Below, piece by piece: positions 16,419 through 38,773 of a stretch of DNA of 38,773 nt. Source of the stretch: Trueperaceae bacterium (lineage in GTDB: Bacteria > Deinococcota > Deinococci > Deinococcales > Trueperaceae); NCBI GenBank assembly GCA_040905465.1, contig JBBDRK010000066.1, forward strand, positions 19,836 through 58,608, read 5' to 3'. The notes under the pieces were generated by a model. That model worked only from the letters and a program-made list of their open reading frames with translations, was not told where the DNA came from and searched no databases. The number at the start of each line of letters is the position of its first letter. Position 1 is the stretch's first letter. A program made the translations under genes and the position numbers.

Positions 16419-16745
16419 ATGACTGCCAAAGAGTTACTGCGCCGGATGCCGGGCGCGTTGGACCCGCAGGCCGCCGAGGGGACCGATGCCGTCATTCAGT
16501 ACGAGATCTCCGAGCCCACCTATCAGGTGCTGCGTGAGGGGGAGCTGACAGTTCACGACGGCCGGGCCGACAACCCTGACCTTACCGTGGCTGTCAGCGA
16601 CGAAAACCTCGTGCGGTTGTTTCGTGGCGAGTTGAACCCCATGACGGCATTCATGTCGGGAAAGCTCAAGGTCAACGGCGACATGGGTCTCGCTCAGCGA
16701 CTGGTCGGCCTGGTCGACCGCGAGAAGGTCTTTCAGCTCGTCTGA
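16419..16745 (+). CDS. SCP2 sterol/lipid-binding domain protein
   Basis: LFRGELNPMTAFMSGKLKVNGDMGLAQRL SCP2 signature. SD AGGAGG and a TAGACT -10-like box upstream; divergent from the acyl-CoA dehydrogenase operon. Confidence 0.9.
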   Translation: MTAKELLRRMPGALDPQAAEGTDAVIQYEISEPTYQVLREGELTVHDGRADNPDLTVAVSDENLVRLFRGELNPMTAFMSGKLKVNGDMGLAQRLVGLVDREKVFQLV

Positions 16746-19387
16746 CGCTCGACTTTGGCCGGCCTCGAGGTTCGCGCCAACGCCTTGGTGCGGTGCCTCA
16801 GTTTGTCCCTGTACATCCGTTGATCGCTGAGGCGCATCAGTTCGGCCGGAGAGGCCGCGTCGTCGGGGAGTAGCGCGATGCCGGCACTGGTATTGACGCG
16901 AGGAAATCCGTCGCAGCGTACCCTCTCCACCGCGTCGGCGACCCTGGCCAACAACGCGGCAGAGTCGGCGGGCTCGACATGCAGCAGGATCGCCGCGAAC
17001 TCATCGCCGCCGATGCGATAGACCCTGCCCCTCTCCCGCAACTCCGCCTCGACCGCGGCGGCGAAGCGGGTGAGCAGCACGTCGCCGCGTTCGTGCCCTT
17101 CCGTGTCGTTGATCGTCTTGAGCGCATCGAGGTCGAGTGTCAGCACGGCCAGCGAATCGTCGTGACGCCGTGCTCGCACCACCTCCACCGCCAGGTCCTG
17201 CTCGAACGCTCGGCGATTCGCCAGCCCGGTGAGCGGGTCGGAGTAGGCCATCGCATGAAGGCGTCTGGCCGACAGCTCAGCCTCGCGCCGGGCCCGCTCG
17301 AGCTCCTTGGTCCGGTCAGCCAGGATCTCGTCGAAGCGCCGCCCCAGGCCGGCGGGTGAAAGCTCGCCACTCCGGGCGTCTCGCCGGTCGACCAGGCGAG
17401 AGGATTCGCCGGCGTAAGCCTCCGGCACGAGGAACAGCGCCTCAGTCCCGGAAAAAGCCTCGAGACAGGCCGCCACCACCGTTGGATCGAACTGGTGTCC
17501 GCTGTTGCGCGCTATCTCTGCGAGCGCCTCGCCGGGTGACCACGCTCGCTTGTACGGCCTCTCGTGGGTGAGGGCGTCGAGAACGTCCGCCGTGGCCACG
17601 ATTCGCGCCGAGAGCGGTATTTCCTCACCCTCCAACCCCAGCGGGTATCCCTTTCCGTCCCAGCGCTCGTGGTGGGCCAGGGCGATCTCCTGTGCAAGCC
17701 TCAGGACGCCTGACTTGGCGCCCTCCAGGATCCGGGCCCCGATGACGGTGTGCGAGCAGATAGTCTCGAACTCCGAGATGCTCAGCTTCTCCGGTTTCAT
17801 CAGGACCGAGTCGGGAATCCCGATCTTGCCGAGGTCGTGGAGTCGAGCCGCGGAGGAGAGAAGCTGCACCTCGTCCTCGGGCCAACCGAGAGTGCGTGCA
17901 ATCGCCGCCGTGTAGCGGGCTACCCGCCAGGTATGCTCGCCGGTCTCGTCGTCGCGGTACTCGGCCGCGACCGCCAGCCGCGTCACGATCTCCCGTTGAG
18001 CCTCCTCCAGCTCGAGGGTCTGGGCGCGCACTCGCCCTTCGGCCTCCTCACGGGCTTGCTGCACCACCTCGAGCTGGTAAGCTTCGACCTCGTGCCTGGC
18101 GCGCTCGAGCTCGAACTGCATGGCGAGCCGGCCGGAACGTTGCTCGTTCTCCTGATTGAAGACCGCCTTCTCGACCCGATGGTACTCACGCTGGTGGTGC
18201 AGCGCCAGGCTCAGCTCTCCGCGCCGCTCGTATCCGACGGCCAGGAGCTCGTGAGCTTCGAACATGGACCGCTTCCGGTCGATGCGCCCGGCCAGCTCGA
18301 GACTGCGGTGCAGCAACTCAATCGCCTCCTCGGTGCGGTCGACGGCCAGGGACACGCGGCCGAGGTTCACCAGCGCGTCTATCTCCCCCTCCCTGTCCTC
18401 GATCTCCTGAGCCAGTTCCAGTGCCCGGCCGTACGAAGCAGTCGCCTGCTCGTGTTGCCCGAGCGCCGTGTGCACCTGGCCGATGCCGTCGAGGTTATCG
18501 ACCTCGTAATGACGTATCCCCAGGCGCCGGACCATGTCGAGCGCCTCTCCGAAGAGCTCCAGCGCCTCTGTCCAGCGCTCCAGTCGGCACGACAGGTTGG
18601 CCATCAGGTTGAGTGACGCCAGTTCGATCAGCGCGTCGTTCGCCTGGCGGCCGACCTCGCGCGCCTGCGTGAAATATCGCCTGACCGCCTCGTTGTCGCC
18701 GAGTTCGTAGTACAGCCGGCCGAGCCCAATGAGGTTGACCGCTTCGCTCTTGGTGCCCGGGGCGGCTTTCCGAATCAACTGGTAGGCAGACTGCAGGCAC
18801 TCCAGCGCCCGGGGGTGATCTCCCAGTTGGGTGTGCAGTCCGCCTATGTTGCTGAGTATGTTCGCCTGCCGCTCTTCGGCGCCCGCCCGTTGCGCCAGCG
18901 CCAGTCCGTTTTCGAGATGCTCCAGCGCTCCGATGTAGTCTCCGCGGGCACCGAGGACGGCCGCTTTCAGGTTCAGCGCGTCTGCCTCCGCCACGGACTC
19001 ACCGAGACTCCGTGCCAGCGCGAGAGCCTCGTCGCTGCGCTCTGCCGCCTGGTCGAGCAGGCCGAGCTCGCGTTCCACTCTCGCCAGGGCCAGGAGCGCT
19101 TCGACCGCGTCGCCCGGCTGGTCGGTAGCCACGAAGCCTTTGTGCGCCTCGGCTAGCGGCTCGAGCGCCTCCTTCAGGCGGCCGAGCCGGTACTCCTCGA
19201 CCCCTGCAAGCAGGAGTTCACCAGGGCTGGCGCCGCTGGGGCTGGTCTCACTGGGGCTGGTGCCACTGTGGCTGGTCTCACTGGGGCTACTTCCGCTGGT
19301 TCCACTGCCGCTGGTGCCACCATGGTCCTTGGCACTGGCTGCTGCGCGGCTGTCTGCGCCTGTCCGTCCGTGCGAGATCGCTTCCAT
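16733..19387 (-). CDS. Soluble TPR-HD-GYP-GGDEF c-di-GMP signalling protein
   Basis: About 400 aa of helical TPR-like repeats, a coiled coil, HD-GYP (EYRDDETGEH, HDLGKIG, HHERWDGKGYP, DVLDALTHERPYK), a coiled coil and GGDEF (DPLTGLANRR, DLDALKTIND, RIGGDEF). SD GAGGGGG. No obvious TM helix. Confidence 0.93.
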   Translation of the reverse strand: MEAISHGRTGADSRAAASAKDHGGTSGSGTSGSSPSETSHSGTSPSETSPSGASPGELLLAGVEEYRLGRLKEALEPLAEAHKGFVATDQPGDAVEALLALARVERELGLLDQAAERSDEALALARSLGESVAEADALNLKAAVLGARGDYIGALEHLENGLALAQRAGAEERQANILSNIGGLHTQLGDHPRALECLQSAYQLIRKAAPGTKSEAVNLIGLGRLYYELGDNEAVRRYFTQAREVGRQANDALIELASLNLMANLSCRLERWTEALELFGEALDMVRRLGIRHYEVDNLDGIGQVHTALGQHEQATASYGRALELAQEIEDREGEIDALVNLGRVSLAVDRTEEAIELLHRSLELAGRIDRKRSMFEAHELLAVGYERRGELSLALHHQREYHRVEKAVFNQENEQRSGRLAMQFELERARHEVEAYQLEVVQQAREEAEGRVRAQTLELEEAQREIVTRLAVAAEYRDDETGEHTWRVARYTAAIARTLGWPEDEVQLLSSAARLHDLGKIGIPDSVLMKPEKLSISEFETICSHTVIGARILEGAKSGVLRLAQEIALAHHERWDGKGYPLGLEGEEIPLSARIVATADVLDALTHERPYKRAWSPGEALAEIARNSGHQFDPTVVAACLEAFSGTEALFLVPEAYAGESSRLVDRRDARSGELSPAGLGRRFDEILADRTKELERARREAELSARRLHAMAYSDPLTGLANRRAFEQDLAVEVVRARRHDDSLAVLTLDLDALKTINDTEGHERGDVLLTRFAAAVEAELRERGRVYRIGGDEFAAILLHVEPADSAALLARVADAVERVRCDGFPRVNTSAGIALLPDDAASPAELMRLSDQRMYRDKLRHRTKALARTSRPAKVERQTS
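19221..19320 (-). repeat. Degenerate 15-nt tandem repeat encoding a Ser/Thr/Gly/Pro-rich N-terminal tail
   Basis: GTSGS-GTSGSSPS-ETSHS-GTSPS-ETSPS-GASPG. GGCTGGTCTCACTGGGGCT occurs twice, 30 nt apart. Confidence 0.75.
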
Positions 19388-19482
19388 GTCGCCCCCTCAG
19401 GGAAGCTGCATCTCGTCGTTACGAAGTACCCCCCAGGTACCGGTTCCGTTCAAGGCTCCAAGCGGCACTGTCATCAGCGTGG

Positions 19483-20949
19483 TCATTCGGACCCGTCCGT
19501 CGCCGCCCCGCTGACTCTCGCCATGAAGCTTTCGATGTTGATCCTGCCTTCGCCGAGCTGCCCTTGGTAATCCTCGTTCGAGTCACCCGAGTAGATGTCA
19601 TCGGAGGTGGCCATCAGGGTTCCCATCAAAGTCGATCGGGCCGTTCCGTGATCCTGACCGATCGCCAGGGCGAGCGCGCCCGAGGCGATCGCCGCGGACA
19701 TCGAGGTACCGCTCCAGGGTGCCTGAGACAGCGCCGGATACGGCCCGTAGATCGACACGCCGGGGGCCGCCAGTTCGACTTTCGTACGTGAGAAGTTGGC
19801 CGTGGCCGTCTTCTCGTTGTCCAGGCCGACACTGGTCAGCGAGAGCTTGTGGTCGGCGCCCAGCGCCACGTGCGCCATGCTGGCAGGATAGGTCACCATC
19901 CCGTCGTCGCTGTCGCCCGCGGAGGTGACCACCAGGACGCCTCGGGCGGTTGCGATGCGCAACGCTTCCAGGACGGCCTGCACCGGTTGGTGAGCGCCCA
20001 GGCTCAGGTTGATGACATCGGCTCCGTTGTCCACGGCCCAGTAGATCGCCTGCGCAAGGTCGGCGGCCTCGCCGACCCCATCGGGTCCGAGAACGCGCAG
20101 CGGCATGATGGTCGCCCGCGGGGCGATCTGCCGAACTATTCCGGCGACGTTGGTGCCGTGGCCGTAACCCCTGTTGTCCAGGTCGCCCGGCTCGTCATCG
20201 GGATAATCGTCGTTGGCGCGGAAGTCTTTCCATTCTTCCGTCGGGGACAACGCCTCGAAAAGGGCAGGATGTTTCAGGTCGACGCCTGTATCGATAATGG
20301 CGATCTTCACGCCGTAGCCCAGGTTGTCTGCCAGAACGTGCCCCTGCTGCAACCGGATCTGATGCCAGGCAGCGGTGTTCTCGGGCATCCACAGGAACTC
20401 GGCTTCTTCGCCGCCGCCCCACACAGTCGACAGGCCGCCACCCCACACCGTCGAGAGGCCGCCGCCCCACACGGTGGACATCCCGCCGCCCCACACCGTC
20501 GACATACCCCCGCCCCACACCGAGGACATGCCCTCCATTTCGACTGAGGCATCCGGACCCGCGAACACCTGCGCGTTGGGTTCCAACGAGTCGTCGGCAG
20601 CCAGTACCGAAAGACCAGCACGGTCCGCCGTCGCGTACTCCGAGTCGACTCCCAGGACCGCCACATCGCCGGGCTCCCAGAAGAGCAGCTCTCCACCGTA
20701 GCGTTCGGCCATCGCCTCGCCGGTATCGTCGGGACCGAGGCGCAAGGTGAGGAGGTACTCGGGGCCGGCGAGCCGGCCGGCGGGTGCCAACGACTCCTGG
20801 GGTTCCCGAACTCCGCTGCACGAGATAAGGAGGGTAAACGCTGCGGCCCCGGCAAGCGCCGTCGCGAAGCGCTGTGCCCGGGAGCGCGGCAATCGGAGAG
20901 CGTTCGGAGCGCGGCGGTCATGGAATAGTGCGGTAATGGGGAATATCAT
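19483..20949 (-). CDS. S8 subtilisin-family serine peptidase, predicted lipoprotein, with internal octapeptide repeats
   Basis: Triad IAIIDTG / GHGTNVAG / WSGTSMS, VINLSLG, and lipobox LISC (Cys codon 20820-20818). Start uncertain: ATG 20949 or ATG 20988. Confidence 0.9.
   Translation of the reverse strand: MIFPITALFHDRRAPNALRLPRSRAQRFATALAGAAAFTLLISCSGVREPQESLAPAGRLAGPEYLLTLRLGPDDTGEAMAERYGGELLFWEPGDVAVLGVDSEYATADRAGLSVLAADDSLEPNAQVFAGPDASVEMEGMSSVWGGGMSTVWGGGMSTVWGGGLSTVWGGGLSTVWGGGEEAEFLWMPENTAAWHQIRLQQGHVLADNLGYGVKIAIIDTGVDLKHPALFEALSPTEEWKDFRANDDYPDDEPGDLDNRGYGHGTNVAGIVRQIAPRATIMPLRVLGPDGVGEAADLAQAIYWAVDNGADVINLSLGAHQPVQAVLEALRIATARGVLVVTSAGDSDDGMVTYPASMAHVALGADHKLSLTSVGLDNEKTATANFSRTKVELAAPGVSIYGPYPALSQAPWSGTSMSAAIASGALALAIGQDHGTARSTLMGTLMATSDDIYSGDSNEDYQGQLGEGRINIESFMARVSGAATDGSE
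20410..20529 (-). repeat. Five in-frame 24-nt tandem repeats encoding (M/L)S(S/T)VWGGG
   Basis: MSSVWGGG-MSTVWGGG-MSTVWGGG-LSTVWGGG-LSTVWGGG. Units differ mostly at synonymous positions. Confidence 0.97.
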
Positions 20950-20993
20950 TGCGATACCATCTCGCGACGAGTTTAGGTCCGCGGTCATTACGG

Positions 20994-21015
20994 AATTCTT
21001 ACAAAATTCTTACAA
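20994..21015 (-). promoter_or_regulatory. Perfect 11-bp tandem direct repeat upstream of the S8 gene, candidate transcription-factor site
   Basis: AATTCTTACAA x2 (minus strand TGTAAG-N5-TGTAAG), an AT-rich island in GC-rich DNA. TAAACT -10-like hexamer at 20975-20970. Confidence 0.6.
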
Positions 21016-21046
21016 TCGCTCGTGGCCGACCTCGCCCCGATCCGAC

Positions 21047-21349
21047 TCAATCGTCCTCACCGCTCCCCCGCCACTCGGCCAGGAACAGGCCGAGCAGTTC
21101 GGGAGCGTCACGCAGCTGCTCACCTTGTCCCACGCGCAGCCTCACCTTGCGGGCAGGCCGCACGCCGCGCCGGGCAAGCATTCTGGCGAGCCACCTGGCG
21201 GCGTCGCCGAAGTCGCTGGCGGTAGAGATCGGAAAGCGCTCGCGGCTGCGAGCCCCGGCTTCGTCCTCGAGCACCAGCAGCGCCTCCACGGCGCCGGCAT
21301 TTCGGCTGAGGAACACCTGTTCGACGAAACGAGGCGTCACGCGCGGCAC
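21047..21349 (-). CDS. Small hypothetical protein
   Basis: Fills the gap between lysC and the S8 promoter on the same strand, with protein-like composition (VEQVFLSRNAGAVEALLVLE...). No recognised domain; start could be 21340. Confidence 0.55.
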   Translation of the reverse strand: MPRVTPRFVEQVFLSRNAGAVEALLVLEDEAGARSRERFPISTASDFGDAARWLARMLARRGVRPARKVRLRVGQGEQLRDAPELLGLFLAEWRGSGEDD

Positions 21350-21457
21350 GCCGGCAGACGCCTGCCGAGAGGCGGCGCCTCGGGTCGGTGCCGGCGGGAC
21401 CCTTCGTCGAGTACGGGCCGGCGGATCGCGGGCTGGCCGACGTCGGGAGGGGCCACG

Positions 21458-21946
21458 TCAGGCCGGTTGCTCGAGCCCGAAAGCTGCGTGGACGGCGGCC
21501 AGGGCTTCCTTGGCGCGCCCGGCCGGGATCACGACCGAGATACGCACCTCGCTGGTGGCGATCATCTCGATATTGGCACCGGCCGCCGCCACAGCGTCGA
21601 ACATCCTCCCGGCGATCCCGGGCGTCGAGCCGATGGCGATGCCCACTATGGACACCTTGGCGATGTCGGTGTCTGCACTGGCTTCGCCGCCGATCTCACC
21701 GAGGACCGGTGCGACCGCCTCCAGGGCATCCTGGACGAGATCACTCGGCACCGTGAAGGCCATCTGCTGCCTGCTGTCGCCCGCCCCGGGAACCCCCTGG
21801 ATGATCATGTCCACGCTCACCCCGGCCCGGCCCAGCGCTGAGAACAGGCGAGCCGCCGTCCCCGGCTCGTCACGCACGCCGCGAACGTTGATACGGGCAT
21901 GGCCGAGGTCCAAGGCGGCGCCGGTGACGGGACGATCTGTTCTCAT
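21458..21946 (-). CDS. Aspartate kinase beta subunit from an internal in-frame start
   Basis: Strong SD GAGGAGG (21958-21952) ahead of in-frame ATG 21946 (MRTDRPVTG), at the boundary of the ACT region. Gives 162 aa. Confidence 0.75.
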   Translation of the reverse strand: MRTDRPVTGAALDLGHARINVRGVRDEPGTAARLFSALGRAGVSVDMIIQGVPGAGDSRQQMAFTVPSDLVQDALEAVAPVLGEIGGEASADTDIAKVSIVGIAIGSTPGIAGRMFDAVAAAGANIEMIATSEVRISVVIPAGRAKEALAAVHAAFGLEQPA

Positions 21947-31503: not shown

Positions 31504-32034
31504 ATGCCTCCCGCACCCAAAGTAGACAGGCTCCCGGTCACAGTAGTCGGGCTCGATCCCGGCCTGGCGAACCTGGGGTTGGGCGCCGTGCGGGAGGAGG
31601 GGCGGTCTACCCGCTGGCTCGGGTCTCACTTGGTGGTAACGCACAGCAAATCATCACGAGCGGACCGGCTCGCGCGCATCTACGACGAGGTCGGCGAGTT
31701 CCTGGCAACCCATCGCCCGGACGCCATAGCCATCGAGGGTCAGTACTTCCACCGCCAGAAGGACACGGCGTTCAAGGTCGGGCAGGCCGTCGGGGTTGTG
31801 CTGCTGGCTGCCGAGCGAATGGGTGTTCCCGTGCACGAGTACGGGCCGATGGAGGTCAAACAGGCGCTGGTGGGGACTGGCCGGGCCTCGAAGGAGCAGG
31901 TCGCGTTCATGGTGCGCGGTCTGCTCGAGCTGCCGGCCGGTCTCTCGAGCCATCATGTGGCCGACGCCCTGGCCCTGGCTCTCACTCACCTGAGCGCGCG
32001 CCGGCTCGGCGCCTTTTCCCGCGCACAGGGCTGA
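31504..32034 (+). CDS. ruvC: Holliday junction resolvase RuvC
   Basis: VVGLDPGLANLGLG, AIEGQYF, EVKQALVGTGRASKEQV and HVADALALAL. ATG 31504 follows AGGAG. Confidence 0.93.
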   Translation: MPPAPKVDRLPVTVVGLDPGLANLGLGAVREEGRSTRWLGSHLVVTHSKSSRADRLARIYDEVGEFLATHRPDAIAIEGQYFHRQKDTAFKVGQAVGVVLLAAERMGVPVHEYGPMEVKQALVGTGRASKEQVAFMVRGLLELPAGLSSHHVADALALALTHLSARRLGAFSRAQG

Positions 32035-35000
32035 CGGTGCCAGCCTCTTTCAAGCTCGCCCACCGGTAGCCGCTTTCCTCTTCCAGGAGCCGAAGCCTTG
32101 CCAATCGGTTCGCCAGCCCCTCCGACAGGTCGAGTTGCGTCATCTGCAACAGCGAACCTGCGAGTGTCACGGCGTCGGTGAGAACCCGGTAGGCTTCGCG
32201 GTCGAAATAGCCCTGCCCTTCGTGCGAGTCGATCCGCAGGAACTCTTCGGCGCGCGAATCGGCCAGCAGTTGCGCCAGCAACTCGGTCGCCGCAGGAGTC
32301 CTGGCCGCCAACGGGGCGAACTCGAGAAGCATCGGCATGAGTTCGGCGAACAGGATCGCCCGGTACGGTTCGGCCGAAGAGTGCTGGCCGGCGGCCAACT
32401 CCTGCTCGAGCCGGAACCGCCCCAAAACCCGGCCGCCCAACGGCGCAAGCGCCATCCACGCCAGCAGGGCGATCTCGAGGGGAAGCATGCGGCTGTCGAC
32501 CGCTTCGCTCACCCCCCGGTGCGCGGCGTAGGCGCCCAGCAACTCCTCGAAGGCCCGCTCGGCATCGCGCCGGCTGACTTCCCACTCGAAATCGTGCCGG
32601 TCGAGTGCCGATAGGAAGTCGCGGTAGCTGGCCAGGAGCGCTTCGGTTTCCGCCAGCGGCGTGTCGAGCAGGTCGCCGAACACGTCGAACAATGGCCGCA
32701 ACAGCAGATCGCTGACCGCATCGTGAACGCTGGGCACCCCGCGCCCGGCCAACTCGCGGCACAGGTCGGCGTACGGCTCGCTCGCGCTGTCCGTCACCTC
32801 CCGGAAGTCGACCAGGACCCGGTACTGGAACGCAGCAAGGTCCGCCTCCATGCCGCGCTCCCGCACCTCGTCGGAGGGTGCGAGGTGCTCGAGCCCGCTG
32901 CCATGGTCGCGGAACACCAGGTAGCGGCCGGGACCCCCGTCAAGGCCAATCCCCTCGAACAGAGTTCGCCGGCGGCTGACCCGGCCACCACCCTCTTCTC
33001 GTGAGCTGTAGGGGACGCTCATGTTCAGCCTGCCGCGAACCTCGGCGTAACTGTTGTGGAACAGCACCAGCGAAGCGTTCCCGTCGACCAGGTTGCTGTA
33101 GGCGAGCACGTCCTCGGCCACTGAACCGTCCTCGGTCAGGAAGTCGTAGAACAGGAAGCCGTCGGCGTCGGCGAAGTGCGCCCGGCGGTGCAGCAACGGG
33201 AATATCTCCCGCTGGTGGCGCTCGATCAGCCAGGGGTCGGGCAGCTCCTGCCGTCGCGCCCGGCGATACTCCATCCCGTACTTCTCCTCGAAGCCCTCGA
33301 CCTGCCCGTGGCCGAACATCGGCAGGCCCGGCATGGTCGCCATGACAGTGCACACCCCGAAGTACTTGTCGCCCTTGCCGAACTGGGCCACGGCGGTGTC
33401 CTCGTCCGGATTGTTCATGAAGTTGACGAACCGTCCCAGCACCTCCGGATCGAACTCCAGAACGTTCTTTACGAACTGCCGGAACTCGGCGTTCGCCTCG
33501 CGCTTCAGCATGTTCATGAAGGCGCTGTTGTAGACCCGGTGCATGCCCAACGTTCGGACGAAGTAGCCTTCCATCATCCAGAACGCCTCGGCCAACAACA
33601 GTGTCCCTGGGACCTCGCTGGCAACTCGGTCCACCACCTCTCGCCAGAACTCCCGGGGAATCATCCGCTCGAACTCGGCGGCCGACATCGAGCCGTTCTG
33701 GGCGCGCGACGGTATGGCTCCTCCGCGACCGGGCTCCGGGTACCAGAGCCGCTGAATATGCTGCTTGGCCAGGGTCATGGCGGCGTCGAAACGGATCACC
33801 GGGAACCGGCGGGCGACGCCCAGGATCGTCTCTATGACCGCTTCCCGCACTTCCGGCTTGAGGTAATCGAGTTGGGCGGTGTCGTTCCAGGGCATGGCCG
33901 TGCCGTCGTTGCCGTGATAGATGAAGCGCACTTCACCGGTTTCCCGGTCGACTCGCTTGAATACCACCGCCGCGTCGGTGTTGTCGTAGTAGTGGTCTTC
34001 CAGGAACACGCCGACTCGTGCGTCGAGCGAGAGGTCGGGGCCGTTGAAGGTGTAGCCGGGATAGGGGGAGTGAGCCGTCTGCACGAACCAGTCCGGGCTT
34101 TCGATCACCCAGCGTCCGTCGATGCCCACGTGGTTCGGCACCATGTCGCTGGCCAGGCGAATCCCCCGCTGCCAGGCGCGCTCACGCAGGTCGTCGAAGG
34201 CGGACTCGCCGCCGAGGTCGTCGGCGATTCGGTAGTCGTACAGCGCGTAGGCCGACGCCACGGCGTCAGGCTGACCCCGCAAGTGCTTTATTCGGCGCGA
34301 CGCCTCGCTTCGTTCCCACAGCCCGATCAGCCACAGGCCGCTGAATCCCCGCGCGGCCAGCTCGTCCAACTCCTCGTCGGGTATCGCGTCGAGAGTGGTT
34401 ATGTCGCGCTCGTAGCGGCGCGACAGTTGGTCGAGCCAGACATAGCTGCTCTTGGCGAGGAGAACCAGGCTGGGCATCCACGAGGCGTCGGGACTGAAAC
34501 GCTCGTACTCCTCGGGGCCACCGGGACCCCTCAGGTCCTCGAGGCCGAGCACGGGCGCCTCCTCGGCCGACCCGGGGACGCCTGCCTTGCGCTCCTCCGC
34601 CAGCAGATCGACCCCCAGCAGCAATCGGTCGAGCAGATTCCCGATCCGCTCACCGAGCAGCGGACGCCAGTTGACCCGGGCGTACTCGAGTTGCCCTTCG
34701 AGCGAGGTGGGGTGGGACAGCGACGGCGCCTGCAACAACTCCAGCAGCGGCGGTCCCGCCACGCCCGACTCGTGAGCGGCATCGTGCCGGGCCGCTTCCG
34801 AGAATAGGGCGGGGTAGGCGTCGTCTGCCCGGAGCGGGGCGTCGTCGAAGAGCTCGCGAAAGCGTTCCAGCGCAGGATTGTCGTTGGCCAGCCACAGGAG
34901 CAGCATCTCCTCGAAGACGACTTCGCGGTTGGCGACCCCGTCGGTCTCGGAGGCCAGATATTCCGCCGGAACTTGCCCACCGCGCTCGACGGCGACGGTC

Positions 35001-35386
35001 GGGAACGTCTCTGCGAAGCGGGTGAGGAGTACCGTCAATCGCTCGGCGCCCAACTCCTCCTCGGCTCGATTCAATGCATCGACGACCGGGTCACGCTCTC
35101 GGGCCAGCTCCCGCTGAACCGTGATCAGCAGGTGCTGCAGTTCGTGAAGCAAGCCGGCGGCAAACAGTTCGCCGGCGCGTACCGCCAGCTCGGGAAAGCG
35201 CCGCGCGTCTCGCAGTTCGTTCATCCGGTCGGCCAGAGTTCGAGCGGCGTCAACGTCGGCGAACAGCACGTTGCCGCGGATTCCGAAGAGGCTCTCCTCT
35301 ACCGAATAGCGCTTGCGCGCCGCACGCGACAGGTGCAACTCACGTGGCGGGCCGGGTACTGCCAGGGGAGCCACGCTCACTTCCAA
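31982..35386 (-). CDS. Large GH13 alpha-amylase-family protein with long N- and C-terminal extensions
   Basis: DMVPNH (region I), IRFDAAM (nucleophile), LLAEAFW (acid/base) and MNNPDE (region IV). TTG 35386 follows GGAGGG; the ORF is open to 35446. Confidence 0.85.
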   Translation of the reverse strand: MEVSVAPLAVPGPPRELHLSRAARKRYSVEESLFGIRGNVLFADVDAARTLADRMNELRDARRFPELAVRAGELFAAGLLHELQHLLITVQRELARERDPVVDALNRAEEELGAERLTVLLTRFAETFPTVAVERGGQVPAEYLASETDGVANREVVFEEMLLLWLANDNPALERFRELFDDAPLRADDAYPALFSEAARHDAAHESGVAGPPLLELLQAPSLSHPTSLEGQLEYARVNWRPLLGERIGNLLDRLLLGVDLLAEERKAGVPGSAEEAPVLGLEDLRGPGGPEEYERFSPDASWMPSLVLLAKSSYVWLDQLSRRYERDITTLDAIPDEELDELAARGFSGLWLIGLWERSEASRRIKHLRGQPDAVASAYALYDYRIADDLGGESAFDDLRERAWQRGIRLASDMVPNHVGIDGRWVIESPDWFVQTAHSPYPGYTFNGPDLSLDARVGVFLEDHYYDNTDAAVVFKRVDRETGEVRFIYHGNDGTAMPWNDTAQLDYLKPEVREAVIETILGVARRFPVIRFDAAMTLAKQHIQRLWYPEPGRGGAIPSRAQNGSMSAAEFERMIPREFWREVVDRVASEVPGTLLLAEAFWMMEGYFVRTLGMHRVYNSAFMNMLKREANAEFRQFVKNVLEFDPEVLGRFVNFMNNPDEDTAVAQFGKGDKYFGVCTVMATMPGLPMFGHGQVEGFEEKYGMEYRRARRQELPDPWLIERHQREIFPLLHRRAHFADADGFLFYDFLTEDGSVAEDVLAYSNLVDGNASLVLFHNSYAEVRGRLNMSVPYSSREEGGGRVSRRRTLFEGIGLDGGPGRYLVFRDHGSGLEHLAPSDEVRERGMEADLAAFQYRVLVDFREVTDSASEPYADLCRELAGRGVPSVHDAVSDLLLRPLFDVFGDLLDTPLAETEALLASYRDFLSALDRHDFEWEVSRRDAERAFEELLGAYAAHRGVSEAVDSRMLPLEIALLAWMALAPLGGRVLGRFRLEQELAAGQHSSAEPYRAILFAELMPMLLEFAPLAARTPAATELLAQLLADSRAEEFLRIDSHEGQGYFDREAYRVLTDAVTLAGSLLQMTQLDLSEGLANRLARLRLLEEESGYRWASLKEAGTVSPVRGKRRRAGARSGE

Positions 35387-35560
35387 CTCGGTTCCCTCCC
35401 TCCGGTCCGGCACGCGGTCGGCGCAACGGCGTGAAACAGTGTTCATCTACTGACAGGGAAGCCTGCGACGGGCAAGAATTCCATGGGCTGGCACGGATTC
35501 TGCCCACCATGTGCGACTCTAGTACAATTCCGTAGGTCAGAAGGCGGGTCAGGAGAGCGA

Positions 35561-37186: not shown

Positions 37187-38184
37187 GGCGTCTCCCGCCA
37201 TTACCGCACGGTCGGCTCGTCGCGGCGGTCCGCGCTTTCGTCCTGAGTGTCGTGTCGCTGCTCCTGGCGGGTTGCGGCGGCGAGTTGCAGACCCCCGGCG
37301 AAGCGTTGCGGATCTTCGGAACCAGCCTCCCCCAGGCGTTCGCCGGCGAGCGCTACGACGCCCCGGTCCGGGCGGTGGGAGGGTTGCGCCCGTTCAGCTA
37401 CACTCTCGGCGAAGGCGAGCTGCCGCCCGGGTTGGAACTGCAGAACGGCGTGATCAGGGGCGTCCCGAGCGAAACCGGTCGATTCGTTTTCACGGTCACC
37501 GTCTCCGACGCCAACCTCTCGCGCACCTTTCAGGAGTACACGCTGACCGTGATCGAAAGGCCGCCGCCCACGCTTGAGCTGGTGGTCCCCGAAACCGAGG
37601 TGCGAGAGCCGACCACGGTTCGGCTGCGCCTCGCAAACGCTTCCGAGGTCCGTGCCGTGAGCGCCAGGCTGATCTGGGACCCGGGCAGTCTCGAACTGGC
37701 GCCCGGTTCGGTCGCGGCCGAGGCCAGCGGGACCGCCCTTTTGTGGGAGAGCGGGCCCGGTTGGCTGCAGATAGACCTGGCAGCGTTGGGCACGCCGTGG
37801 AACGACGCTCGGAACCTGGCGAACTTCGTGCTGGCGCCCAGCCAACCGACGGTTCTGGAGATTACTGCCACCGTCGTGTTCCTCGACGACCGCGACGGCA
37901 GGCACTTCCAGGGCGCACCCGCCGCTCCGGAGGGCGGCGCGGACTCGCCCGACACTGATCCTCCAGGTCCGGATACGCCCGACAGCGAGGACGAGGATCC
38001 GGCCGAGGGCGATCCTGCCGAGTCCGATACCGACGGGGCAGACAGCAACGGGGCGGAAAGCAACGGACCCGACGCCGTCGGGTCCGAATCAGCCGGGTCC
38101 GAATCAGCCGGGTCCGAATCAGCCGGGTCCGATCCGATCGGAACCGACGAGCCCGAGCCCGAGCCGGAGGGGGACGAGCAATGA
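37183..38184 (+). CDS. Predicted lipoprotein with an Ig-like (He_PIG-type) domain, a beta-rich second domain and an acidic low-complexity tail
   Basis: Lipobox LLAGC, GGLRPFSYTLGEGELPPGLEL..G.IRGVP...FTVTVSD Ig motif. GTGA overlap with the treS stop. Confidence 0.75.
   Translation: MRRLPPLPHGRLVAAVRAFVLSVVSLLLAGCGGELQTPGEALRIFGTSLPQAFAGERYDAPVRAVGGLRPFSYTLGEGELPPGLELQNGVIRGVPSETGRFVFTVTVSDANLSRTFQEYTLTVIERPPPTLELVVPETEVREPTTVRLRLANASEVRAVSARLIWDPGSLELAPGSVAAEASGTALLWESGPGWLQIDLAALGTPWNDARNLANFVLAPSQPTVLEITATVVFLDDRDGRHFQGAPAAPEGGADSPDTDPPGPDTPDSEDEDPAEGDPAESDTDGADSNGAESNGPDAVGSESAGSESAGSESAGSDPIGTDEPEPEPEGDEQ
38080..38132 (+). repeat. Perfect 15-nt tandem repeat, about 3.5 copies (GSESA)
   Basis: GGGTCCGAATCAGCC x3 plus GGGTCCGA. 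Confidence 0.95.
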
Positions 38185-38717
38185 ACACCGGGAGCCTTCC
38201 GAGCAGGGCGACTTTCGCTCTGCTCGCCCTGCTGCTGTTCACCAGCGCAACCGCCACGAGCTATCGGGAACTGTCGCTGCAGGAGATCTTCACTGCCACC
38301 GAGGTCGGCTTCGTTGCGACTGTCGCTTCGTCCAGCGTCGAGATGCGTGGAGACATGCCGTGGACGGTGGTCGAGTTCGAGGTACAGCGGTGGCTCGCCG
38401 GCGACGGGGCCGAGAACCGGGTCCGGCTCGCCTTCCTGGGCGGCAGCCGTCCTGGCGGGGCCAGCTTGCAGGTCAACCTGATGCCCGGTTTCGAGGTTGG
38501 AGAGCGGGTGATGGTACTCGCCTACGACGAGGAGTACTACTCGCCCATCGTTGGCTTCAATCAGGGTGTCTGGCGCCTGCGGGACCAGGCGCTGCTCGAC
38601 GCTCAGGGCAGGCAACTGAGCCTCGCCGACGACGGCCGGCTCCTCGCCGATGGGCCCGGTGTGGAGCCGCAACTGGTGATCGACGCCGTGGCTCGCGAGC
38701 TCGAGGCGCGCCAGTGA
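38181..38717 (+). CDS. Hypothetical exported protein
   Basis: Signal peptide (...LALLLFTSATA), ATGA overlap with the previous gene and SD GGAGGGGG. No function recognised. Confidence 0.75.
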   Translation: MNTGSLPSRATFALLALLLFTSATATSYRELSLQEIFTATEVGFVATVASSSVEMRGDMPWTVVEFEVQRWLAGDGAENRVRLAFLGGSRPGGASLQVNLMPGFEVGERVMVLAYDEEYYSPIVGFNQGVWRLRDQALLDAQGRQLSLADDGRLLADGPGVEPQLVIDAVARELEARQ

Positions 38718-38773
38718 GGGCAGTGAGCGGACCGACGCCGCGGAGGCTGCTACCCGCACCGTCGTTGCTGGTG
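38714..38773 (+). CDS. Possible 5' end of the next gene (truncated by the window)
   Basis: GTGA overlap at 38714 and an open frame to the window end (VRAVSGPTPRRLLPAPSLLV, signal-peptide-like). Confidence 0.35.
   Translation, partial: MRAVSGPTPRRLLPAPSLLV

Follow-up and report, generated by a model that had tools for sequence, protein, structure and literature searches.

A tandem Trp-Gly peptide array in a clade of predicted lipoprotein subtilases, held by selection on the peptide, and its candidate link to a neighboring cyclic di-GMP gene

What might five near-identical copies of an eight-residue peptide be doing inside a protease, immediately ahead of its catalytic domain? The question is raised by a 38,773-nucleotide stretch of a Trueperaceae bacterium genome (contig JBBDRK010000066.1; hereafter the window), in which a gene for a protease of the S8 (subtilisin) family encodes a tandem array of (M/L)S(S/T)VWGGG units. 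An original prediction, made from the letters alone, had described the array, placed it at the junction of prodomain and catalytic domain, argued that selection acts on its peptide, and offered a multi-core precursor with a signal role as one reading, with a self-inhibitory pseudo-substrate or an aggregating, amyloid-like Trp-Gly motif as alternatives. Such arrays turn out to mark out a large S8 clade; every member of it that carries an organism name belongs to Deinococcota.

The array in the window and across relatives

The array translates in frame, from 20529 down to 20410, as MSSVWGGG, MSTVWGGG, MSTVWGGG, LSTVWGGG and LSTVWGGG, an exact match to the original prediction that extends to its synonymous codons (Ser TCC/TCG, Thr ACG/ACC/ACT, Gly GGC/GGG/GGT, Leu CTC/CTG). 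Tandem Repeats Finder delimits it at 20410-20532 (period 24, 5.1 copies, 83% matches, no indels) with a score of 162, the highest among its 31 rows for the window. Eight of the 24 nucleotide columns vary, six of them third codon positions at which all changes are silent and two of them first positions that give the M/L and S/T alternatives; VWGGG is unchanged across all five units. The sequence ...LEPNAQVF (residues 135-142) flanks the array on its N-terminal side and ...AAWHQIRL on its C-terminal side, and no Pfam or NCBIfam model spans it.

The same kind of array recurs throughout the relatives of the protease. A profile search of 1.84 billion representatives returned at least 150 proteins among the matches listed, all at E <1e-94, and a search with residues 60-260 found 13 proteins, every one of them with units of this kind at the same place. 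With an array defined as two or more Trp that recur at a fixed period in the 130 residues upstream of the catalytic Asp, 151 of the 163 proteins of a first set have one (period 7 in 101, period 8 in 47); the 12 misses comprise two fragments, six giant, unrelated multi-domain S8 proteins, one degenerate array and three true arrays overlooked by the pattern, one of which has Phe instead of Trp. With 108 further relatives added, 256 of 271 proteins have two to eight units of seven or eight residues before the catalytic Asp. Because the same array type occupies the same place in so many relatives, the window array lies far beyond chance; homologs do keep a Trp-Gly unit here, a point that the original prediction had put forward for checking.

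Across relatives, the core of the unit is hydrophobic-W-small-(G/S/D/E)-G, with a logo of G-[WRFY]-[SNT]-A-W-[AS]-[GS] for the 7-mers and x-S-x-[VLAIM]-W-[AS]-[GED]-G for the 8-mers; examples include SSTIWAGG x4 in Calidithermus chliarophilus, LSTVWSGG x5, RSSLWAGG x4 and SSKVWAEG x4. The organism-named relatives, seven of seven from Deinococcota, are two Calidithermus, one Trueperaceae metagenome-assembled genome (MAG) and four Deinococcus. Ricin lectin domains, carbohydrate-binding modules (CBM) and immunoglobulin (Ig) domains, additions typical of exported enzymes, are found at the C-termini of the family.

Genomic context was taken from 22 loci, namely the window, three loci (L001, L002 and L014) that gave an N-terminal match among the best 80 in a profile scan of genome contigs with the closest-relative alignment (A1) and generic S8 patterns, and 18 Deinococcus plasmid or megaplasmid records found by tblastn; neighboring genes were scanned with Pfam. 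One candidate, L079, was set aside as a different S8. Several of these loci extend the range of the array. Phe stands in for Trp in AGAFVT x4 of L090 (Deinococcus sp. D7000), which has a six-residue period, and in GLYAFNN x3 of protein P0160, and these arrays suggest that the requirement may be for an aromatic residue and not specifically for Trp. Array-bearing S8 genes occur two in tandem at L091, L093 and L097/L099 (D. taeanensis, D. deserti), the second copies lacking a prodomain and carrying a different unit; the paired arrays of D. deserti and D. taeanensis differ, as in GYNAWSS x4 and SFGAWA(S/T) x5. The array is kept right after the lipobox in four S8 genes that have no prodomain (L091b, L093b, L097b and L095), of which the L095 protease, from D. 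peraridilitoris, has GSRWWAD x5, and the L081 protease (D. radiodurans isolate DRR11, NZ_OV024759.1) carries a longer, 21-residue repeat, LGARPIWIW...

The silent sites of these arrays bear directly on how the units are kept alike. Codon comparison over the ten unit pairs of the window array counts 27 silent and 10 replacement differences, and 0.47 of silent sites differ between units versus 0.066 of replacement sites. Extended to 17 arrays drawn from the window and these loci, the comparison gives a pooled ratio of replacement to silent divergence (pN/pS) of 0.30. Four other arrays behave like that of the window: KISMWAGG x4 in L084 (18 silent and 0 replacement differences), GLGVWGD x6 in L088 (53 and 7), TVGLWGSG x3 in L089 (15 and 0) and AGAFVT x4 in L090 (25 and 0), in all of which 0.60-0.78 of silent sites differ and the peptides are the same or nearly so. 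Unit identity is 0.75-0.78 within arrays versus 0.38-0.50 between proteins; the 256 arrays have 204 distinct modal units, and all units are identical in 69 of them. Gene conversion or fresh slippage would erase silent differences too; it is therefore purifying selection on the peptide that keeps whole units alike, and this selection covers unit positions at which species differ freely. The silent-site divergence rules out fresh slippage or gene conversion alone; the original prediction had argued against recent slippage from the wobble positions, and the comparison of homologs that it proposed gives a copy number of two to eight and units alike within proteins and different between them.

The predicted zymogen and the neighboring gene

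Where does the array sit in the protein? The domain order of the protease is signal and lipobox, I9-like prodomain, array and catalytic domain (Table 1). Pfam PF00082 (Peptidase_S8) matches residues 225-465 (E 1.1e-36; 127.1 bits against a cut-off of 21.8), and the triad D233, H277 and S429, in Asp-His-Ser order, is invariant both in the 13 sequences of alignment A1 and in a 96-sequence alignment (A3) and aligns with the triad region of subtilisin BPN'. One expected residue differs: Asp359 (19912-19914, minus strand) occupies the position of the oxyanion-hole Asn155 of BPN', where Asn is found in at least 90% of alignment A3 and Asp recurs in the two closest relatives, P0004 and P0008. Asp also stands here in the proprotein convertase PC2, a subtilase that is active. 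Among NCBIfam models none reaches its cut-off, the scores for mycosin (type VII secretion) and QhpE being 114.2 versus 278.75 and 96.9 versus 165. At the N-terminus, the lipobox Cys57 is invariant in 13 of 13 sequences of alignment A1, the hydrophobic maximum of the protein spans residues 42-60, and a lipobox-like pattern (by pattern only) is present in 91 of 95 family members; the protease is accordingly annotated here as a predicted lipoprotein.

An AlphaFold model built from the 96-sequence alignment (mean predicted local distance difference test, pLDDT, 85.2) contains a prodomain of beta-alpha-beta-beta...beta fold at residues 78-142, docked on the catalytic domain, with strands at 78-83, 100-105, 109-114, 134-137 and 140-142, a helix at 90-97 and a pLDDT of 87-98. 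For the model built from 13 sequences, Foldseek gives as its top match unprocessed pro-subtilisin E (3WHI_B, E 1.6e-20, 438 columns) and also lists unprocessed Tk-subtilisin (2Z2Z). At the level of sequence, Pfam I9 (PF05922) has no match in the protease at E <= 0.01 and Pfam is empty over residues 1-224; Protein Atlas feature matches to I9, Peptidase_S8_N and Fervidolysin_NPro-like clusters (0.83-0.86) are leads only, as are the matches for residues 60-224, where all feature scores are <0.9 and all structure template-modeling (TM) scores <=0.41. Along the model, pLDDT is 72 over residues 141-150, then 49, 50, 45 and 58 across 151-190, and 89 over 191-200, and the 13-sequence model has the same low confidence in the array. 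A pLDDT of 45-58 argues that the array would not be a fixed element of the fold, and we discarded that candidate, which the original prediction had named as a possible refutation, on the low values obtained with both alignments.

The insert between the last strand of the prodomain and the junction comprises 58 residues (143-200), 40 of them within the five units. HMMER pairs protease residue 223 with BPN' residue 22, which puts BPN' residue 1 at about 201-202, so that the canonical mature enzyme would begin near Met201/Pro202; conservation in alignment A1 is 90% or more for both W200 and P202, and Trp200 is probably P1 of the canonical pro/mature junction. The array thus lies between the membrane anchor and prodomain on one side and the predicted first residue of the mature enzyme on the other, and its placement at the prodomain/catalytic junction by the original prediction agrees with the AlphaFold, Foldseek and Pfam results alike.

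Table 1. Features of the protease locus in the window (residue numbers refer to the encoded protein; TPR, tetratricopeptide repeat; c-di-GMP, cyclic di-GMP)
Feature	Position	Strand	Details and basis
Partner gene	16733..19387	-	884-residue soluble TPR/c-di-GMP protein; downstream of protease, 95-nt gap; Pfam
Protease gene	19483..20988	-	501-residue S8 (subtilisin-family) predicted lipoprotein; open reading frame (ORF) list, Pfam PF00082
Catalytic domain	19486..20388	-	Residues 201-501; Asp233 20290-20292, His277 20158-20160, Ser429 19702-19704
Last spacer EEAEFLW	20389..20409	-	Residues 194-200; Trp200 predicted P1 (W200↓M201)
Tandem array	20410..20529	-	Five 24-nt units encoding (M/L)S(S/T)VWGGG, residues 154-193
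I9-like prodomain	20557..20766	-	About residues 75-144, ending in strand LEPNAQVF; AlphaFold, Foldseek
N-terminal signal region	20818..20988	-	Ends in lipobox L-I-S-C; Cys57 codon 20818-20820; invariant C57
Perfect direct repeat	20994..21015	.	AATTCTTACAA x2 (gene strand, TTGTAAGAATT); 6 nt upstream of listed start codon

Downstream of the protease lies a gene whose product, in Pfam, has TPRs at about residues 60-470, an HD-GYP domain at 475-637 and a GGDEF domain at 714-867; the named proteins closest to it come from Trueperaceae MAGs (55-59% identity). This partner has no transmembrane-like segment or signal peptide (its top 19-residue hydropathy, 1.56, falls inside the HD domain), and the lack of a membrane segment implies a cytoplasmic location. 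A scan of 16500-21500 found no promoter or terminator, including no terminator-like site between the protease and partner genes. Near the partner N-terminus, 15/30-nt tandem repeats at 19224-19320 (minus strand) encode Ser/Thr/Pro/Gly-rich low-complexity sequence (SGTSGSSPSETSHSGTSPSETSPSGASPGE) before the TPRs.

A TPR/c-di-GMP neighbor stands beside the protease gene in 21 of the 22 loci, among them that of D. alpinitundrae (L001) and, in reversed order, that of a Deinococcales MAG (L014), and the remaining flanking genes vary from locus to locus. The partners range from 416 to 1251 residues and combine TPRs with HD-GYP+GGDEF, GGDEF+EAL, HD-GYP alone or GGDEF alone. Outputs vary while the TPR N-terminus is common to 19 of 21 partners, which marks the TPR part as the probable common input. 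In D. deserti, two proteases with two different arrays stand with one 1251-residue partner of order TPR-HD-GYP-TPR-GGDEF. An IS630 element lies between protease and partner in L087, the gaps in L082 and L088 are 0.75-1 kb, and in L081 (D. radiodurans) a transposase gene splits the partner into a TPR part and an HD-GYP-GGDEF part. According to PMC11219805, the D. radiodurans partner is DR_A0342, for which an IS2621 insertion in ATCC 13939 strains is described and HD-GYP and GGDEF are named. A text match for DR_A0342 in PMC8779699 proved to consist of KEGG pathway numbers and not of the gene. Just upstream in L081 are kynU and kynA, genes of tryptophan breakdown, which is probably a coincidence.

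Protease and partner also resemble one another in their pattern of divergence. Similarity matrices of the protease catalytic domain and of the first 430 partner residues correlate over 20 pairs (Mantel r 0.76, reached by 0 of 2000 permutations), and the nearest neighbor agrees for 12 of the 20; the TPR parts are less conserved than the proteases (0.74 versus 0.85 and 0.43 versus 0.64, for example). The closest matches to the partner TPR in a sequence search of the PDB are the LGN/Pins TPRs, which bind extended peptides, and designed TPRs are found as well. A complex prediction of the TPR part (residues 55-470, alignment A2) with the array (residues 146-200, alignment A1), run without controls, scored 0.02 against a mark of 0.32, which counts neither for nor against an interaction.

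Possible functions of the array

The reading of these results that we favor, if tentatively, is that the array serves as a self-cleavable tether and that the identical peptides it releases are sensed by the TPR partner. The array would form a disordered peptide cassette, cleavable by its own enzyme, inside the zymogen of a lipid-anchored subtilase. Subtilisin specificity calls for an aromatic P4, a small P2, an aromatic P1 and a small P1' residue, and the unit resembles such a site (aromatic or hydrophobic at P4), which suggests a cut after each Trp. After prodomain-assisted folding, the protease would cut behind each Trp, which takes P1 while a small residue takes P1'; the conserved ...F-L-W↓M-P-E-N junction would be one further copy of the same cut site. 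These cuts would free the catalytic domain from the anchored prodomain and release several identical Trp-ended peptides of seven to eight residues, GGG(M/L)S(S/T)VW in the window, each activated enzyme molecule emitting a fixed number of identical, species-specific Trp peptides. In the least certain step, the peptides would enter the cytoplasm, bind the TPR groove of the partner and change c-di-GMP turnover. Cleavage, import and TPR binding, and with them the link between peptides and partner, we infer from sequence. Because the partners include both makers and breakers of c-di-GMP on a shared TPR input, co-expression for one end would be insufficient to explain the pairing. Signaling of this kind would be like that of Rap/Phr, NprR or ComR, except that the pro-peptide would be part of its own processing protease. 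That the whole amounts to a new peptide-signaling design, with a pro-pheromone carried as a tandem cassette in a zymogen and a TPR receptor wired to c-di-GMP, is possible, and we put it forward with considerable doubt.

The main rival to a signal role retains the cleavable tether alone: the repeats would be redundant sites for autoprocessing and release, the peptides waste, and the partner either co-regulated with the protease or a sensor of general proteolysis products. The position of the array, its disorder, its site-like logo and the junction Trp fit this account equally well, and it is further favored by the constant place of the array between lipobox and mature domain, even where the prodomain is missing, and by L002, where an array occurs with no adjacent partner. 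A cleavage site needs few fixed positions, however, yet whole units stay identical despite diverged silent sites, and pairing at 21 of 22 loci with swapped outputs on a mostly shared TPR input is left unexplained; we regard a tether without a signal as possible but on the whole doubtful. A different role, in the cell envelope, would have the Trp/Gly repeats lie at the membrane interface or bind the cell wall or S-layer and thereby hold the zymogen or enzyme on the surface. The protein is a predicted lipoprotein, its array is predicted to be flexible, and Trp is favored at membrane interfaces and in wall-binding repeats. This proposal is nonetheless unlikely, as no Pfam, NCBIfam or Atlas match ties the array to a binding repeat, many family members already have separate C-terminal lectin, CBM or Ig domains, 204 modal units fit a conserved envelope ligand poorly, and the cytoplasmic partner is unaccounted for.

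Could the units instead act on the enzyme itself? The logo is substrate-like, the array adjoins the prodomain tail, which fills the active site in pro-subtilisins, and single beta-bridges appear within it (181-182 in the shallow model, 164-165 in the deep model), all of which would suit a pseudo-substrate brake whose repeats fill the active site in turn, inhibiting the zymogen or fresh enzyme until consumed. The bridge residues are of low confidence, though, and the bridge shifts between the two models; the I9-like prodomain already inhibits, and copy number ranges from two to eight with no visible compensation, which makes such a brake distinctly improbable. The multi-core reading of the original prediction divides at this point. 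Its signal part gains circumstantial support from the TPR/c-di-GMP gene beside the protease; its other form, in which the array is the precursor of a peptide made by ribosomes and modified after translation (RiPP) and the units are cores that undergo chemical modification (of Trp, for example) either before they are cut out or afterwards, is not supported. Tandem cores that are nearly alike and share an invariant Trp fit this form, and borosins and plant BURP cyclases offer examples of repeated cores fused to an enzyme, but the window and the genes beside the protease in the loci contain no radical-SAM, cyclase, prenyltransferase or similar gene, and the PatA/PatG model TIGR03895 reaches 37.4 bits against a cut-off of 421, so that we give a RiPP precursor very little credence. 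Least credible, and already disfavored by the silent sites, is a neutral low-complexity linker that serves for spacing only and is kept uniform by slippage or gene conversion. Some arrays are indeed identical or nearly so in DNA (L082, L086, L001) and copy number varies; conversion, on the other hand, would level silent sites, of which 0.47-0.78 differ in the window, L084, L088, L089 and L090, and Trp, like the Gly after it, is retained throughout the 256 arrays.

Several observations weigh against released peptides acting through the TPR partner. The array of L002 has an M20 peptidase for a neighbor in place of the partner; L094 and L096 keep the partner beside degenerate arrays; and the partners of L096 and L098 have no TPR match at E <= 1e-8. 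All 22 loci belong to a single phylum, 19 to the genus Deinococcus, and are orthologs and paralogs related to one another; common descent of linked genes could by itself produce the Mantel result. The PDB sequence search, at E <= 0.01, matched no receptor of the RRNPP family to the partner TPR, and no gene for a peptide importer or permease is present in the window or conserved in the loci. On the side of the protease, Asp359 at the oxyanion position may weaken or specialize catalysis, and the canonical junction lacks a Trp in the 7-mer clade. On the side of the array, L082 has two units with the same DNA sequence, and in L086 and L001 the matching outer units differ little in DNA, indicating that duplication or conversion also acts, and two unit types follow one another in A-B-A order in several arrays (L001, L083, L085, L086).

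Set against known systems, the array combines features of several. With pro-subtilisins (S8A; subtilisin E/BPN', Tk-subtilisin) the protein shares the catalytic fold and triad, a prodomain docked as in 3WHI and 2Z2Z, and an aromatic residue predicted at P1 of the pro/mature junction; unlike them, it has 58 residues inserted where their last prodomain strand runs straight into the junction, is a predicted lipoprotein, leaves Pfam I9 unmatched and has Asp for the oxyanion Asn. In the RRNPP systems of Firmicutes and phages (Rap/Phr, NprR/NprX, PlcR/PapR, PrgX, ComR/XIP, AimR/AimP), a cytoplasmic TPR protein is encoded beside the gene for an exported precursor of a species-specific peptide of 5-10 residues; Phr peptides are matured by subtilisin-family enzymes, and some XIP pheromones are Trp-rich. 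Here too a TPR protein, predicted to be cytoplasmic, is encoded beside a putative peptide precursor (19 of 21 partners have the TPR match), but that precursor would be the protease zymogen itself, with two to eight copies of the peptide, the TPRs are fused to c-di-GMP enzymes and not to a DNA-binding or phosphatase domain, the TPR region matches no solved RRNPP receptor in sequence, and the phylum is Deinococcota. Multi-copy pro-peptides cut by subtilisin-like convertases are found in yeast alpha-factor with Kex2, in fungal Kex2-processed repeat proteins and in neuropeptide precursors; they share with the array tandem identical short peptides whose copy number varies between species, release by an S8 enzyme being only proposed here, and differ from it as separate proteins with dibasic sites, the cassette lying inside the protease with Trp as its conserved residue. 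Among RiPPs, the parallels are cyanobactin PatE with the PatA/PatG subtilases, the borosin OphMA, and BURP-domain cyclases with repeated Trp cores; they too have repeated core-like peptides, sometimes in the same polypeptide as the processing enzyme, unlike the window, where no modifying enzyme or domain is seen and the neighbors are aspartate kinase, oxidoreductase and acyl-CoA dehydrogenase genes. Finally, LapG/LapD pairs the gene of a periplasmic protease with that of a receptor bearing c-di-GMP domains, LapD spanning the membrane and holding the protease from outside; the pairing of a protease gene with a GGDEF/EAL-family gene is alike, whereas the partner described here has no membrane segment and a TPR input, and LapG is a cysteine protease. 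By analogy, the array would work most like the convertase-cut multi-copy pro-peptides and, if the TPR link is real, like RRNPP systems, short of membership in either.

Few enzymes have been studied as thoroughly as the subtilases, whose maturation is textbook material. Although the cassette marks a large S8 clade, no curated model was found that describes it, nor any paper in the literature searched, whose accessible part lay outside subscription journals; that literature likewise yielded nothing on repeats in Deinococcota subtilases, no protease-TPR-c-di-GMP pair and no RRNPP-like system in Deinococcus. With the peptides under selection and the gene traveling with a TPR/c-di-GMP partner, peptides that proved to be signals would tie extracellular proteolysis to second-messenger control by an undescribed route. 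They would make up the first peptide signal system in Deinococcota, with one copy in D. radiodurans (partner DR_A0342), and so provide a peptide communication system for Deinococcus, a model for stress resistance. On the plainer account, in which the array is a multi-site release tether, it would be a new maturation design for a lipid-anchored subtilase.

Upstream repeats and the rest of the window

The start codon of the protease is uncertain, and the true one may lie downstream of 20988, as is suggested by the nearness of the perfect direct repeat at 20994-21015 to the listed start. This repeat is a possible operator of uncertain status; 14 nt of it (TGTAAGAATTCCGT) are found again 76 nt upstream of the L002 protease gene. 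The motif TGT[GA]A[GC]A, a pattern chosen post hoc, occurs 11 times in 16 upstream regions of 250 nt compared with 1.7 +/- 1.3 in shuffles, the regions including those of L002, L014, L081, L083-L085 and L089, and we treat a shared operator as a lead only.

Elsewhere in the window, the genes are of housekeeping type (Rho, IleRS, GAPDH, PGK, ETF, acyl-CoA dehydrogenases, aspartate kinase, a Liv-type ABC transporter and glutamine synthetase). Two long ORFs with high GC content at third codon positions (GC3), at 31982-35446 (minus strand, 1154 residues) and 37530-38759 (minus strand, 409 residues), have no Pfam match at E <= 1e-6. At 38079-38132 lies a perfect 15-nt tandem repeat, CGGGTCCGAATCAGC, with 3.6 copies and 100% matches, accompanied by other short repeats within 37996-38233.

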